Part shown: piece after piece, positions 4,705 through 62,310 of the stretch | How positions within the stretch are numbered: position 1 is the first letter of the stretch | Layout of the letters: each line of letters begins with the position of its first letter | Sequence record: PZ452610.1 | DNA length: 64,000 bases | DNA from: a phage | Direction: 5' to 3' (one strand) | The notes under the pieces: model-generated | Databases searched by the model: none | Told to the model about the DNA's origin: nothing | The model's input: only the letters and a program-made list of their open reading frames with translations | Program-made: the position numbers and the translations under genes

Positions 4705-6918
4705 TTATTTGGCTGCTTCCACAGCCTTCATGAATTTAACGATTTGAGTGACCTGTTCTTTGGAAAGAGTACCACGTCGTCCCATGTATTCTGACACAAT
4801 ATGATAATTGGTTTCAAATTCAATAACCATTTTATCATCATAATCGTAAGCATTATCTTTAAGCTTATCGAAAATTTTAGCACACAATTCTAACTTCCTG
4901 TTCAGGTCTCTGTTATCAGCACCTGCGAATCGATTCCATCCCCAACGATTATTTACTGTTGAAAGTTTTGCAAAATCTTTACTGATTTCTTTGTTCTTAG
5001 AGCTAAAATACTTACTAAGGAAGTTAAGCTCTTCATTACGAGTAATATGATTCAAATAAGGCTGTGCTCTACGACTTGGTGATACATACTCATCATAATC
5101 CACTTTATCAATTAGCGTAATATAGTCATTAATTGATTTTTCGAACAAGCATTCTACTTCACCAAGTTTACGAACTTTCTTAGCAATCTGTGGGCGAACT
5201 ACAGTGAACTCTTTAATACCTGACAAATCGGCAATACGAGTCAAGAAATTAGAATCATAATTCAACCAACCTTTATCTGCGTCAAGACATTCAGCATTAG
5301 AACGATTACGAACTATAGCATAACCTTGGATTTCATCTGCTTCACTTGCCGGAATAAAGAGATCTTCTGATACCCAAACATCATTTTCATTCTTAAAGAA
5401 CCGATGAGCACTTGGGGATTTAGGACGAGGCTCATTAGTTCGTTTCCTGACTTCAATCCATGGCTTAACGATTTGTAAAAGCTCTGAAGTCTTGTACATG
5501 TTAATGTTGTCGCCATCAAAGATAACTTTAAGGCGTTCCAGAAGTTTCATTGCATCTTCGTCTGTAGGGTCAACGAATAGTACGCTTTTACCAAAACCAC
5601 GTGGAACTTTACCAGTTAATTTAACCTCGTCTTTAGACATTTCAATTGAATTAAGAGCTCGCATTAATGGAACGCGTCCCTTAACGTCGTCAATAACAAT
5701 TTCAACGTTTTTAATGTTAATGCCAATCAGGCTGTTAATTGAAATGGTTGATGATGAGCTACCACTTTCACGAATACGACGAAGACGAGGGGATTCAACG
5801 ATATCGTATACGACGCCAAGATTACACCACTCAGGCCCCATTTTAAAACGTTTGTACAACTCAGAATAAGTTAGTTGTTCTTTAGAGTATTTCAGTGATT
5901 CAATATTAGACCCGGCCTTTTCCATGTATTTACGAGCGGTATAGCCAAGAGAATCAATTTCACGGAACACATGACGTGGGTATTTACAATCAATCCATTT
6001 CTTAGAATCTTCAGCAAACAATTTAGCATCGATTTCTGCAACGCGTTTATGGATATTTGCTACTGTACGTTTATCAAATGACAATGCTTCACGAGACGGG
6101 GCTACATCTAGTTCACCCATAGGGAATTTAATATAAGCTGTAGTGCATCGCGTCATCATCCATGTTTGTTCTTTAATAACACTTCCGATTGGATATACAA
6201 TACCGCCATAAACAGCCATGATATTACCACGTTCACCCCATGGAGCTTCCTTGGCTAAATAAACATCATCGAATTCCGGGAAGTATTTGATATCTTTAAC
6301 ACCACGAACTTCTGCAATATCGCCGAGAGGACGCATAACATAAGCAATTTCGGATGCGAACTTTTCAAAATCTTCCGGGTTAACCGGTACAACTACTTCT
6401 ACACCCGTACGGTCATCAGGACCCATCTTATCTACAAAGGTCGGCTTAATTTGTGGACCTGTGTCATCTTGGTAGATTACGTAACCACGAACTTCACCGT
6501 TGTGATAAGACGTAAGGTTAAACGTATCAGTATATGCTAATGGAGCTTTAGAACCGAGTCCGAATCCACCAATGAAATCGTTACTCGATGTTTTAGTTGA
6601 AGCAAAATATGAGTTATAAATTCCTGGCTCTTCGTCATTACCTCGAATGGTGAAATCGCTCATACCAGGTCCAAAATCACGAACTACAAAACGTGGGTCT
6701 AAACGACCTGGAGCCTGAACAATAAACTTATCAGTGCAACCGTTAAGAATTTGTCCATCGATACAGTTTGTAATTAATTCACGTACACAAGCCAATTCTT
6801 TGTTTGTATAAAGGTCATTAGACAAAATCTTATAAACTTTGCTATTGCCTTGAATAGTGAATGCTGTGCTCTTACCGCCTGAACCAATAATCGTTTCTTT
6901 AGCCGTTTCAATAATCAT
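4705..6918 (-). CDS. rIIA: rIIA protein (GHKL-type ATPase domain)
   Basis: 737 aa; MIIETAKETI... N-terminus and ELITNCIDG N-box-like motif as in T4 rIIA. Confidence 0.85.
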   Translation of the reverse strand: MIIETAKETIIGSGGKSTAFTIQGNSKVYKILSNDLYTNKELACVRELITNCIDGQILNGCTDKFIVQAPGRLDPRFVVRDFGPGMSDFTIRGNDEEPGIYNSYFASTKTSSNDFIGGFGLGSKAPLAYTDTFNLTSYHNGEVRGYVIYQDDTGPQIKPTFVDKMGPDDRTGVEVVVPVNPEDFEKFASEIAYVMRPLGDIAEVRGVKDIKYFPEFDDVYLAKEAPWGERGNIMAVYGGIVYPIGSVIKEQTWMMTRCTTAYIKFPMGELDVAPSREALSFDKRTVANIHKRVAEIDAKLFAEDSKKWIDCKYPRHVFREIDSLGYTARKYMEKAGSNIESLKYSKEQLTYSELYKRFKMGPEWCNLGVVYDIVESPRLRRIRESGSSSSTISINSLIGINIKNVEIVIDDVKGRVPLMRALNSIEMSKDEVKLTGKVPRGFGKSVLFVDPTDEDAMKLLERLKVIFDGDNINMYKTSELLQIVKPWIEVRKRTNEPRPKSPSAHRFFKNENDVWVSEDLFIPASEADEIQGYAIVRNRSNAECLDADKGWLNYDSNFLTRIADLSGIKEFTVVRPQIAKKVRKLGEVECLFEKSINDYITLIDKVDYDEYVSPSRRAQPYLNHITRNEELNFLSKYFSSKNKEISKDFAKLSTVNNRWGWNRFAGADNRDLNRKLELCAKIFDKLKDNAYDYDDKMVIEFETNYHIVSEYMGRRGTLSKEQVTQIVKFMKAVEAAK

Positions 6919-58732: not shown

Positions 58733-59734
58733 TTATTTCAGTAAAGTAACTTCCGAGATTTCTTCCCAACCATCTTTATCAGTTGAAATAAAATCTGCTA
58801 CATAAAGAGCCGTACGTAATGATACATTGCGAAGACGAGATACGTTAGCCTTCATCCAGGACAATGCTTTATACGTTTCTGCATCCGTCAGACCACGTTT
58901 CTGCATCATGTCAGTAGATAATATTACATCTTCAACTCGAACCATAATCTCTTCATTAGAGTGTACTCCAAGGTCGAGATACACTGAACGAGATACTAAA
59001 GCTTGAAGGTGTGGAGCAAGTTTCGAACCCCGTTCTAACTCTTTATCGATATCAACGTTTGTAATGAAAACGATAGTACCTTCAAACTCAAATTCTTTAT
59101 CAATACCCTTATCCTCGAGATAAGATGACGCAGTGCTCCAACAAACTTTGCGTTTATCTCCGGTATCTAATGCTGCTTTAAGAAGGTTCAGGATGTCCAT
59201 ATCTGAGAATACGTCAACGTCATCGATTAAGAGAACGCTGTCTTCATCACGGTTGAGCCAAAGTTGTTCGTAAAGGCCAATACCAGAGATTTTACCATTA
59301 ATGCTTTTGTATTTGATGAAACCATTATCATTAGCATTATTAAGTGCTTTATCCAGAGAATACGTCTTACCAATACCAGCTGCACCTGAAATAATGAGTG
59401 AACGAATTTTGCCATCGATAATGCCATTCGTCATCATGTTCATTACTTTAAAGCGTTTGTTGATACGGGTTTTCATATCTTCAGTGCTTTCAACAACTGC
59501 AACTGGTGATGTCTCAACTCCTTCCATTACGATGTCTGATTTGAAGACCCATACTCCACGTTCAGAACCATCAATCATAACGAAAATTTTACCATCACCT
59601 AAGTGGGAACATTCAGGATTAAGCTTTGCCGGGAACCAGGTCTTTGTGGCAACATAAGAACCAGAGATTTCGTTATTACGATAGATACCTTTTTTGATTT
59701 GAACGTTGAACATTTTATTCTCCAATTTACTCAT
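58733..59734 (-). CDS. P-loop NTPase (AAA-like ATPase) of unknown function
   Basis: 333 aa; Walker A SGAAGIGKTYS, Walker B VLLIDDVD; about 100-aa N-terminal extra domain. Confidence 0.6.
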   Translation of the reverse strand: MSKLENKMFNVQIKKGIYRNNEISGSYVATKTWFPAKLNPECSHLGDGKIFVMIDGSERGVWVFKSDIVMEGVETSPVAVVESTEDMKTRINKRFKVMNMMTNGIIDGKIRSLIISGAAGIGKTYSLDKALNNANDNGFIKYKSINGKISGIGLYEQLWLNRDEDSVLLIDDVDVFSDMDILNLLKAALDTGDKRKVCWSTASSYLEDKGIDKEFEFEGTIVFITNVDIDKELERGSKLAPHLQALVSRSVYLDLGVHSNEEIMVRVEDVILSTDMMQKRGLTDAETYKALSWMKANVSRLRNVSLRTALYVADFISTDKDGWEEISEVTLLK

Positions 59735-59780: not shown

Positions 59781-59807
59781 TACTTTTTAAAAATATTTTA
59801 ACCCCCT

Positions 59808-59827
59808 AAAGGGACCCGAAGGTCCCC
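59808..59827 (-). terminator. UUCG-tetraloop hairpin after secreted-protein gene
   Basis: Minus strand GGGACC-UUCG-GGUCCC then UUUAGGGGG. Confidence 0.45.
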
Positions 59828-59831
59828 ACAT

Positions 59832-60098
59832 TTACTTATCACACTTAGCAACATAATTAGGCATATCACAGAATACAGAGCGAGTAACTACTCGACCCTT
59901 TGACCATGCTTCAGTTGCTTGTCCGGCCGTGCTATTAATATAGCTTGATTTAATGTTCTCAATACCCTGAGAATGTGATGCATTTACCGAACCGTTAGAA
60001 GGCCCAGAAGACTGGTTACCACCAGCTCCTGCGCCCGTGGTAGCACCAACAGAGAATGCCATCATTACTGCGAATAAACCAATTACTAATTTTTTCAT
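59832..60098 (-). CDS. small secreted protein (88 aa)
   Basis: N-terminal signal peptide MKKLVIGLFAVMMAFSVGA; Gly/Ser-rich linker; TATAAATA late promoter upstream, UUCG hairpin downstream. Confidence 0.55.
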   Translation of the reverse strand: MKKLVIGLFAVMMAFSVGATTGAGAGGNQSSGPSNGSVNASHSQGIENIKSSYINSTAGQATEAWSKGRVVTRSVFCDMPNYVAKCDK

Positions 60099-60129
60099 AT
60101 TTACCTCAAGTTAATGGTTATTTATCTAT

Positions 60130-61119
60130 TTATTTATAGTAAGAATTATGATTTTCGAGATAGACTTGCTCAAGGAAGTCATCCCAGAAACTCATATCTA
60201 CTTTTTGTTGCATACCGTTCTTAGCGGCTTGTTCTGACGCATGTTCAACTTGGTCAACGATATCTTCTAGGAATTCTTGCACAGTTTTAAACGTATGTTT
60301 ACCAAGCTTAACATCGAGAATAAATGGAGCATCCTGAAGTGGGTAAACCAGGTCGCCGGTTTTGTAAATTTCCAATAATTGAAGTCCACCACGACATGCA
60401 TGACTCAATGCTTTCCAGTCAATACCTTCGTTAGCTTCTGCCTTACGAGCACGTTCGCCATAGTTCTCTTCCAGTTTAACCAGGATGGCATTGAACTCTT
60501 TATTGGTTAACGTATCTTGGAATTTACGGTCTAACAGATTATAGAATGTTTGCTTACCTGTTTTCTCGTTTTCGGTTTCAACCCATGAAGCAAATTCACC
60601 TACAGGCAGAACATTCTTCATATGTGATAAACGAATTACTGCACCATTATCAAAGTATTGTCCCCATTCATTAGAACGTTTAAGGGCTTGACGAAGAACA
60701 GCCAGTCGAGAACCCTTGACACCGTATTTAGAAGCTTGCTTACGGACATACCCTAAATAAGATTTCATGTTAGTGGTATAGAAACGAGACCTGTTATCTT
60801 GAATATACTTCCATACATCAGGCAAATCAGATTTAACTACTAGACTTTGTGGAGTGTGAAGCATATCTAATGCGACGGTTTCACCATCTGCAGCTAGTTT
60901 AAAGAAATATTTGAGACTATATAACTCATGGTCCACGTCGTCTTTTGTGTTCTTAGAAGATGTGTTATTCGTGTTCTTGCTCATGTGTTCTTTAACGTTA
61001 CCGGTCAAGATATCACGAGCATGAGGGACATAAATTTCTTTAAAATCGACGTCAGATTCAGGAGTAGACGTTCCATAAAGGTGGCTACCAAAGTAGCCTT
61101 TCATAATTGTTTTCATCAT
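60130..61119 (-). CDS. Pol-beta-superfamily nucleotidyltransferase domain protein
   Basis: 329 aa; N-terminal GSHLYGTSTPESDVDF (GS...D.D) plus downstream VALDM third acidic residue. Confidence 0.55.
   Translation of the reverse strand: MMKTIMKGYFGSHLYGTSTPESDVDFKEIYVPHARDILTGNVKEHMSKNTNNTSSKNTKDDVDHELYSLKYFFKLAADGETVALDMLHTPQSLVVKSDLPDVWKYIQDNRSRFYTTNMKSYLGYVRKQASKYGVKGSRLAVLRQALKRSNEWGQYFDNGAVIRLSHMKNVLPVGEFASWVETENEKTGKQTFYNLLDRKFQDTLTNKEFNAILVKLEENYGERARKAEANEGIDWKALSHACRGGLQLLEIYKTGDLVYPLQDAPFILDVKLGKHTFKTVQEFLEDIVDQVEHASEQAAKNGMQQKVDMSFWDDFLEQVYLENHNSYYK
60131..60138 (-). promoter_or_regulatory. late-promoter-like TATAAATA upstream of secreted 88-aa protein gene
   Basis: Minus strand TATAAATA about 33 nt upstream of ATG at 60096-60098. 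Confidence 0.4.
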
Positions 61120-61589
61120 TTAGCCTTATATTCAAGAGTAGGACAGACTTTTTCTTTACGAGCTTTAAGGTATTCGCCTATTAATGATTTCTTACGTTCA
61201 ATAGGCTCAAGTCCATTTTTAATTCGTTCTTGGTTTTGCGCAATGAGCTCAATTTCTTTATAATATTTTCTGTCGTTATATTTGTCTAACAACCAAGACG
61301 GACCAATTACCAACCCGGTAGCAATAAAAGCCATGACTGCTACAATTAAAATGCCTACACCAATTGAGGCTGGAACTAATGTCCATAGACTGCTAAAAAC
61401 AAAGAATTTAGTTAAAATTTCCTGGCCAATGATTGTGACTGCTGCTAAAATCGCAAATCCAATAATTGAAACAGCCAATACCGGGATTAACGTTTTCCAA
61501 AAATAAGCACACAACGTTTTCGGACGATTCCATGTACTATTGAACGCGGCATAAATTTTAAAGTGCCAAGAGTTTTCATTGATAATCAT
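61116..61589 (-). CDS. membrane protein (157 aa)
   Basis: ORF track; several hydrophobic helices; stop overlaps NTase start. Confidence 0.55.
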   Translation of the reverse strand: MIINENSWHFKIYAAFNSTWNRPKTLCAYFWKTLIPVLAVSIIGFAILAAVTIIGQEILTKFFVFSSLWTLVPASIGVGILIVAVMAFIATGLVIGPSWLLDKYNDRKYYKEIELIAQNQERIKNGLEPIERKKSLIGEYLKARKEKVCPTLEYKAK

Positions 61590-61598
61590 AATAATTCC

Positions 61599-62129
61599 TT
61601 ATTTCAAAGTTGGGATAATAGAATCGAGATAAGCTTTAAGAGCAACTGCTTCATCTTTGTCTAATGTAACGATATGTTGACGAAGGTCATCAATTTGACG
61701 AATAACTACAACATCGCCATCTTCATAAGAAGGATTAACGCCTAGGACCGTTGTATAGTCAGGGCGGTCCTGATTTGTAATAAAAGCATTACGGCATTTA
61801 GCCCATTGAAGTTTGGCCTTTTTGGCTATTTCAGATTCCATTAATTCTTTCACCTTAGTGACGAATGTTTTCCAATTATTGATAGAAAGGCATTCATCTT
61901 CTGTTTCGATATTAACCCCACTATAAAGACCGTGATAAAAACGAACTTGAAGGTCTTCATCGATGTTAATTACAGATGCATGGCCTGGCGGATTGAGTTT
62001 CAAAATCTTGTCCAGTTCCATAGGAAGAATAGTAACAGAATCATCTTCTTGTGTCAGAACGTAAGCATAACCACGTTTTTCGATACATAAATCACCAAAC
62101 AACTCGGTTGTTTCAATTACAATTTTCAT
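61599..62129 (-). CDS. hypothetical protein (176 aa)
   Basis: ORF track trimmed to MKIVIE start with GGTGA RBS. Confidence 0.5.
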   Translation of the reverse strand: MKIVIETTELFGDLCIEKRGYAYVLTQEDDSVTILPMELDKILKLNPPGHASVINIDEDLQVRFYHGLYSGVNIETEDECLSINNWKTFVTKVKELMESEIAKKAKLQWAKCRNAFITNQDRPDYTTVLGVNPSYEDGDVVVIRQIDDLRQHIVTLDKDEAVALKAYLDSIIPTLK

Positions 62130-62130
62130 A

Positions 62131-62310
62131 TTATTCACCAATTAAAGTTTCAACAAAATTCACCAAAGCATTCTGGCACGCATCAACCTGATTTTCATAA
62201 AAGTCTCCGTTATCATTTACCGCGTGATAAGCTACATCATTCAAATCTGAATCGGCTTCACGTAGGTCACGGATAAGGTCCATCAATTTATTAGCTTGTT
62301 CACGGGTCAT
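62131..62310 (-). CDS. small acidic protein (59 aa)
   Basis: Sub-threshold ORF MTREQANKLMDLIRDLREADSDLNDVAYHAV... Confidence 0.35.
   Translation of the reverse strand: MTREQANKLMDLIRDLREADSDLNDVAYHAVNDNGDFYENQVDACQNALVNFVETLIGE

Follow-up and report, generated by a model that had tools for sequence, protein, structure and literature searches.

The 64,000-nucleotide (nt) stretch of phage DNA analysed here (PZ452610.1; the whole of it is called the window) carries, at positions 60130-61589, a gene for a DNA polymerase beta (Pol-beta)-type nucleotidyltransferase (NTase) together with a gene for a membrane protein. The source phage is a Mosigvirus of the Straboviridae, i.e., a T4-like coliphage, and over 59800-61700 the sequence is 100% identical to Escherichia coli O157 typing phages 3, 6 and 13. 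Every gene in this part of the window lies on the minus strand. The NTase gene (60130-61119) encodes 329 amino acids (aa) beginning with MMKTIMKGYFGSHLYGTSTPESDVDF, and the gene for the membrane protein (61116-61589; 157 aa, phrog_944) is its upstream neighbour. As the preliminary description of this locus had stated, the NTase start overlaps the stop of the membrane gene; the strand, which that description did not give, is minus for both genes. The overlap is an ATGA at 61116-61119, in which the TGA stop of the membrane gene (61118-61116) shares bases with the first ATG of the NTase gene (61119-61117). RefSeq places the NTase start at the second ATG, which gives a protein of 328 aa and a 1-nt TGATG overlap with the membrane gene.

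The 329-aa open reading frame (ORF) matched PF10127 (RlaP, 'RNA repair pathway DNA polymerase beta family') with an E value of 5.9e-13 and a score of 49.5 bits against a gathering cutoff of 23, and phrog_388 'nucleotidyltransferase' with an E value of 4e-126. It is 80% identical over the full length to T4 NrdC.11, and both genes occupy the same position between nrdC.10 and mobD.1. PF10127 was precomputed for all 240 homologs among the matches listed, and T4 NrdC.11 itself was placed as an RlaP in a PF10127 similarity network in a 2025 preprint (PMC12776372). The ORF is the ortholog of T4 NrdC.11 and almost certainly a member of the RlaP/PF10127 family. It is already catalogued under the existing annotation 'nucleotidyltransferase' and its predicted role is already published; as a gene of known kind, it adds little by its identity.

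Using tblastn, we found NrdC.11-type genes in 1521 phage records, with hosts including Escherichia, Klebsiella, Aeromonas, Acinetobacter, Vibrio and Sinorhizobium, and an exhaustive profile search returned 7501 cluster representatives at E ≤ 1e-3, of which 1720 reach E ≤ 1e-30. All 150 family representatives listed are free-standing proteins of ~250-460 aa, mostly 300-370 aa. The preliminary description had assigned the gene to an accessory island; the region is indeed plastic, but the gene is broadly conserved among T4-like phages.

Identical proteins in NCBI carry the name 'nucleotidyltransferase', while many are named 'thioredoxin' instead. The latter label, present in GenBank, UniRef and NCBI, is an error spread from the gene name nrdC.11, and fixing this widespread label would benefit phage annotation. 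Other name-derived labels occur nearby, such as 'helicase loader' on a 59-aa ORF, and T4 mobD.4 is likewise labelled 'molybdopterin-guanine dinucleotide biosynthesis protein MobD'. In the T4 reference NC_000866, an ambiguous base inside nrdC.11 (12436-13446 of L002; related loci are cited by L numbers) leads to the translation DLPDXWKF. Full-length homologs with 29-40% identity are also found as single genes on megabase-size chromosomal contigs (L187, L191, L208, L216, L221 and L250), where the NTase lies near 5001-5950 of the respective locus, in metagenome-assembled genomes (MAGs) of Desulfobacterales, Nitrospirota and Zixibacteria, with unrelated housekeeping genes on either side. Niveispirillum and Hydrogenophaga have two tandem NTase copies (L231 and L233; 4938-6774).

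The motif of the Pol-beta-like NTase superfamily, hG[GS]-x9-13-Dh[DE]h, is present in the 329-aa ORF as G11-S12, ten residues and D23-V-D25, i.e., FGSHLYGTSTPESDVDF (codons at 61045-61089, minus strand), and contains the first two metal-binding carboxylates. The third catalytic carboxylate is D85 within a VALDM sequence (codon at 60865-60867, minus strand). An initial homolog search gave only proteins that were 99-100% identical; the alignment was built from distant IMG/VR homologs and comprises the window protein and 120 others at 37-47% identity to it. G11, S12, D23, D25 and D85 are invariant across these 121 sequences, and the signature is no product of chance. The only replacement of D85 in the most distant pair of homologs is E, and the G11-S12-x10-D23-x-D25 motif is kept in all ten homologs from RNA-repair cassettes. 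The 121-sequence alignment also contains invariant residues in the C-terminal part (Q128, Y132, G133, G136, R138, R223, K236, H240, R243 and P260), which include basic and aromatic ones and were taken to favour the tRNA-repair reading given below. The GS-x10-D-x-D and VALDM elements on which the preliminary description had based its assignment to the Pol-beta superfamily are therefore present and invariant, and the assignment itself is borne out by the PF10127 match and the intact triad D23/D25/D85. The two outcomes that had been named beforehand as telling against the proposal did not occur, as the triad persisted upon alignment and no housekeeping tRNA nucleotidyltransferase was matched.

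An AlphaFold2 model calculated from the 121-sequence alignment (mean pLDDT 92.8, pTM 0.81) contains an N-terminal NTase domain with the minimal NTase alpha/beta fold, a small beta insertion at residues 177-201 and a helical C-terminal domain that closes with a long helix at residues 309-327. A Foldseek comparison of this model with solved structures gave E values of ~1e-3 and TM-scores of 0.25-0.4, with no structure close, and neither a CD-NTase nor a CCA-adding enzyme was among the matches listed. Sequence and profile searches with the NTase in a copy of the Protein Data Bank (PDB) matched no chain and did not bring up the PfRlaP crystal structure, and NCBIfam and PADLOC gave no match for either the NTase or the membrane protein. 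These searches bear on the possibility that the enzyme repairs or adds the 3'-CCA end of tRNAs. The phage depends on host tRNAs and carries tRNAs of its own, which would suit a Pol-beta NTase of this kind, and CCA-adding enzymes occur in some jumbo phages (PMC7824862). However, CCA-adding families were unmatched in Pfam and NCBIfam, and RlaP and CCA-adding enzymes are handled as separate families in the same study (PMC7824862); we consider a CCA-adding role extremely improbable. For the cGAS/DncV-like CD-NTases of CBASS, we obtained neither a profile match nor, among the matches listed, a cGAS-like fold match.

New evidence on the function of the NTase comes from its gene neighbourhoods in distant members of the clade. 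The homologs considered here are full-length clade members, 31-48% identical mutually and to the window protein (66% for the L104/L123 pair), and all have a GSxLY...SDxD motif. In ~9 divergent uncultured phage lineages, the NTase is part of an RNA-repair cassette whose other members include an RNA ligase, either Rnl1 or a different one, and Pnkp, HD-Pnk or a stand-alone PNKP phosphatase. In L076, the NTase gene directly adjoins that for an RNA ligase (PF09414), after which comes Pnkp with kinase and HAD phosphatase domains, and in L229 the genes for the NTase, a T4 Rnl1-type ligase (PF09511) and Pnkp overlap. The order in L179 is NTase, NT5C-like ORF, Pnkp, 143-aa ORF and Rnl1; in L079-L081 and L085 it is HD-Pnk, Rnl1, two small ORFs and NTase. 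Downstream of the NTase in L072/L159 come first an HD phosphohydrolase and then an RNA ligase, at distances of 0.7-1.2 kb, and RNA-repair genes are found 2.4-3.1 kb away in L108, L222 and L245. A stand-alone PNKP-type HAD phosphatase (E ~1e-45) precedes the NTase in L104 and L123, its stop overlapping the NTase start, and since RlaP enzymes need a 3'-OH acceptor, a phosphatase directly upstream is chemically sensible. A repair gene is located less than 500 bp from the NTase in six of ten contexts. The repair partners are non-homologous analogues of one another (HAD versus HD phosphoesterases, Rnl1 versus PF09414 ligases), a pattern typical of functional linkage. NC_041863, which is 100% identical to the window over the 1.9-kb stretch of this locus, encodes both RNA ligase 1 (gp015) and polynucleotide kinase (gp022).

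Genes for NAD+ salvage also recur near NrdC.11 homologs, at most a few kb away, in uncultured phages and those of the Aeromonas type. Among their products are NMNAT-Nudix (NadM-like), NAMPT/NAPRTase and a phosphoribosyltransferase-domain (PRPP-synthetase-like) protein (L006 513-1571, L010 4972-5936, L057 5450-6946, L123 6507-8928 and L064 4238-5110). This recurrence may merely reflect a shared auxiliary-gene region.

Taken together, we favour, with a probability of roughly 0.6, the reading that the NrdC.11-type enzyme adds nucleoside monophosphates (NMPs) to RNA 3'-OH ends in tRNA repair before re-ligation. It is based on family membership, the invariant catalytic residues, the two-domain fold, the repeated linkage within the clade to end-healing and end-sealing genes, and the presence of RnlA and Pnk in the same genome. 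A host anticodon nuclease or other tRNase would cut a tRNA, with RloC-type enzymes also excising a nucleotide, and the phage polynucleotide kinase/phosphatase would then convert the ends to 3'-OH and 5'-P. NrdC.11 would use its two-metal site D23/D25/D85 to add 1-2 NMPs, untemplated, to the 3'-OH of the 5' fragment, after which phage RNA ligase 1 would seal the break. Substrate and product in this scheme are modelled on in vitro work with two Pseudomonas RlaPs, and which host nuclease would be countered is likewise inferred. The Pseudomonas enzymes attach 1-2 NMPs to RNA at its 3'-OH but do not act on DNA or protein; Mn2+ is their preferred metal, and on a nicked-tRNA mimic they act preferentially on the 5' half. 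They also raise the aminoacylation of a repaired tRNA that had been one nucleotide short (PMC12776372). According to a 2021 comparative study, RlaPs are the most prevalent such NTases in jumbo phages and their distribution tracks that of RNA ligases; the study predicted that phage RlaPs make good the nucleotides that cut RNA has lost, ahead of ligation (PMC7824862). T4 tolerates deletion of the nrdC.11-mobD.3 segment (PMC9825161), which fits a conditional counter-defence role, though it is no proof of one. Modification of nucleic acid would thus be the best supported of the functions listed in the preliminary description.

Several observations weigh against a dedicated role in tRNA repair. The PF10127 match spans only residues 7-152 of the protein, corresponding to model positions 23-148 of 249, the likeness by hidden Markov model (HMM) to characterised RlaPs being confined to the N-terminal half. 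RlaP biochemistry is confined to PfRlaP and PaRlaP, which lie outside the NrdC.11 clade, and according to the authors of the preprint RlaP adds nucleotides unselectively, with an in vivo benefit that is unproven (PMC12776372). In the phage studied here, rnlA and pnk/pseT are ~80 kb from the NTase gene, and they are not adjacent to it in T4 either. Linkage to repair genes was seen in only ~10 of roughly 200 sampled loci, most neighbourhoods being variable. For repair genes lying within 500 bp in six of ten contexts, a binomial test against uniform placement over 4 kb gives a p value of 5e-4; this statistic is crude and was set up only once the data had been seen. In the Desulfobacterales and Nitrospirota MAGs, the neighbours of the chromosomal homologs are unrelated housekeeping genes, none of them conserved and none of them repair genes; these bacterial homologs say nothing on function.

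Some of these points would also fit a general RNA 3'-tailing enzyme that is not dedicated to repair and could, during takeover, tag tRNAs or transcripts of host or phage origin for decay or stabilisation. In vitro, bacterial RlaPs accept any NTP and label rRNA, tRNA and single-stranded RNAs alike, i.e., with low specificity (PMC12776372), the Tevenvirinae gene sits among early genes away from rnlA/pseT, and most neighbourhoods in the clade are without repair genes. On the other hand, tight linkage to several non-homologous types of end-healing and end-sealing enzymes recurs, RlaPs add no more than 1-2 nucleotides, with a preference for the 5' half of a nicked tRNA (PMC12776372), and the jumbo-phage distribution of RlaP mirrors that of RNA ligases (PMC7824862). 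We therefore regard general tailing as unlikely. Nucleotidylation of a small molecule or a protein, as in drug modification of the KNTase/LinB type or toxin AMPylation of the MNT type, is very unlikely. The helical C-terminal domain does match HEPN-domain proteins as well in Foldseek, but there was no sequence-family match in Pfam or NCBIfam, and no HEPN toxin gene adjoins the NTase, which is flanked by the membrane protein and a signal-peptide ORF, neither of them matching HEPN. Moreover, bacterial RlaPs left E. coli proteins and DNA unlabelled (PMC12776372), and the RNA-repair gene context points to an RNA substrate. Identities as a CCA-adding enzyme, CD-NTase, antibiotic NTase or MNT were all rejected for want of a family match or fitting context.

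The preliminary description had also proposed that the NTase is coupled to the membrane protein encoded upstream, which it took to be multi-pass. The 157-aa protein has a hydrophobic stretch at residues 25-102, and its AlphaFold2 model (pLDDT 84) shows a membrane hairpin of two helices and, after it, a long cytosolic helix; it is a membrane protein, but a two-pass rather than a many-pass one. Pfam, NCBIfam and PADLOC gave no match, and in Foldseek all E values for its model were above 1, i.e., there was no fold match. Residues W8, C27, Y29 and C149 are invariant in the phrog_944 family (SWHY...LCxYFWK ... KxKxCPxxEF), a small phage-only family without a Pfam entry (copies at L003 2923-3345, L004 3001-3447 and L005 3001-3420). 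Family members also occur in unrelated settings: in Vibrio phage ICP1 (gp169), where no NTase was called beside the gene, and in other phage contigs and a Cellvibrionaceae MAG (in a lambdoid-like region), where no adjoining NTase was called. The copy in Kuravirus NJ01 is unannotated, and the downstream ORFs that were scanned had no Pfam match. One oddity is Aeromonas phage Aes012, in which the gene just before an RNA ligase (PF09414 plus OB domain) encodes a phrog_944 homolog; this gives a membrane-linked RNA-repair function a very small probability.

We then assessed the synteny of the pair in 79 IMG/VR loci with NrdC.11 homologs. The membrane gene is directly upstream of the NTase in ten loci and 0.35-2.4 kb upstream, with other genes in between, in a further 27, and in those 27 the NTase start overlaps whatever gene is upstream. 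It is downstream of the NTase in one locus and was not detected within 3 kb of the NTase in the remaining 41. Loci with less than 55% identity were all without a detected membrane gene, except L047, L049 and L059. The 17-kb nrdD-tk region of T4 has no trace of the membrane gene, and its slot holds the HNH homing endonuclease gene mobD. Start/stop overlaps of 1-11 nt are found in 18 of the 44 adjacent gene pairs in the annotated 20-kb stretch around the gene, and since so many neighbouring pairs in the region overlap, the overlap of the NTase and membrane genes is uninformative. The claimed functional coupling is thus not upheld, and the two genes are probably neighbours by regional synteny and not a module. 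Insertions seem to recur in the slot just upstream of nrdC.11 (L016 2201-3004; T4, L002 13430-14209); it contains a 267-aa ORF in one IMG/VR relative and unrelated ORFs of 140-185 aa in many Klebsiella- and Enterobacter-type relatives.

The same data bear on a pairing like that of Hailong, which consists of an NTase and a membrane ion channel (PMC13276650). In such an arrangement, the NTase and phrog_944 would cooperate in Tevenvirinae, with an oligonucleotide or signalling nucleotide made by the NTase either gating the membrane protein in the manner of HalB or serving as a phage decoy that keeps a host Hailong-type effector off and silences the defence. The 4-nt gene overlap and the direct adjacency in ten related loci would be in line with this arrangement. 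Against it, similarity is limited to the NTase core, with TM-scores of 0.25-0.4 and nearly equal values for 3c18 and KNTase, PADLOC is blank for both proteins, and the membrane protein is without a fold match (every E > 1). Direct adjacency is missing in 69 of the 79 loci, the 17-kb T4 region has no membrane gene, phrog_944 occurs in ICP1 and the lambdoid-like MAG region with no NTase called beside it, overlaps are common in the region, and all family representatives listed are free-standing proteins. We give a Hailong-like pairing hardly any credence.

The remaining neighbours, all on the minus strand, are as follows. Upstream of the membrane-protein gene lies a gene for a MobD.1/y05I-like protein (61599-62141; PF24449 and PF24448). 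Downstream of nrdC.11, between it and nrdC.10, lies an 88-aa ORF (59832-60098; phrog_2243) with the N-terminal signal peptide MKKLVIGLFAVMMAFSVGA, which was seen in two of the 79 sampled loci (L011 and L056) and is absent from T4. The NrdC.10 ortholog (58733-59734; phrog_1250, unknown function) is a P-loop/AAA-type ATPase with a GAAGIGKT motif and weak matches to AAA_22, AAA_16 and nSTAND3. Its gene is located 0.1-2.4 kb downstream of that for NrdC.11 in 29 of the 79 loci, Acinetobacter phages included, and as a regional neighbour it is conserved about equally to the membrane gene. A promoter and terminator scan of the region gave counts at background, and no operon boundaries are claimed.

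Of the closest known systems, T4 NrdC.11 (T4p095, NP_049709.1) is the ortholog: it has the same position in the nrdC-tk early region, and both genes are annotated 'nucleotidyltransferase'. T4 differs in having mobD immediately upstream and no membrane gene, whereas the phage studied here has the extra 88-aa ORF downstream. With the RlaPs of P. fluorescens and P. aeruginosa, the window protein shares PF10127, the DxD motif plus third D, and an N-terminal NTase domain followed by a helical C-terminal domain; in the PfRlaP crystal structure, the C-terminal helical domain forms a cleft with the NTase domain, and the last helix packs back on the NTase domain. Genomic linkage to RNA ligases and end-healing enzymes is likewise shared, in related phages though not in this window. 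In contrast, the published network has the NrdC.11 clade in a cluster of its own (cluster 5; PMC12776372), and the bacterial enzymes are encoded in rtcB-rtcA operons, while those ~80 kb separate the window gene from rnlA and pnk.

The HalB protein of Hailong (PDB 9dbh/9dbj) is only 16% identical, with 128 residues aligned. HalB is 217 aa long, is without the large conserved C-terminal domain of the NrdC.11 clade and makes free oligodeoxyadenylate; a conserved membrane partner of the HalA type was not found here, the neighbour being without a fold match and the pairing not conserved. KNTase/ANT(4') and LinB act on antibiotics, whereas the window protein has no sequence-family match to such enzymes and its gene context holds no hint of a small molecule.

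Pertinent to the proposed role in tRNA repair are the Pnkp/PseT and Rnl1 pathway with which T4 counters PrrC, and the RloC anticodon nuclease. RNA repair has its founding example in T4 Pnkp/Rnl1, a pathway that RloC-type nucleases have been proposed to defeat by removing a nucleotide. Both repair enzymes are encoded by the phage studied here. The classical T4 pathway needs no NTase, and that NrdC.11 restores the nucleotide removed by RloC is a published prediction; if true, T4-like phages carry a three-enzyme repair pathway. Several uncultured phages join an NrdC.11-type gene with Pnkp and Rnl1 types in one cassette, and these compact NTase-Pnkp-Rnl1 cassettes make the idea of a third enzyme directly testable.

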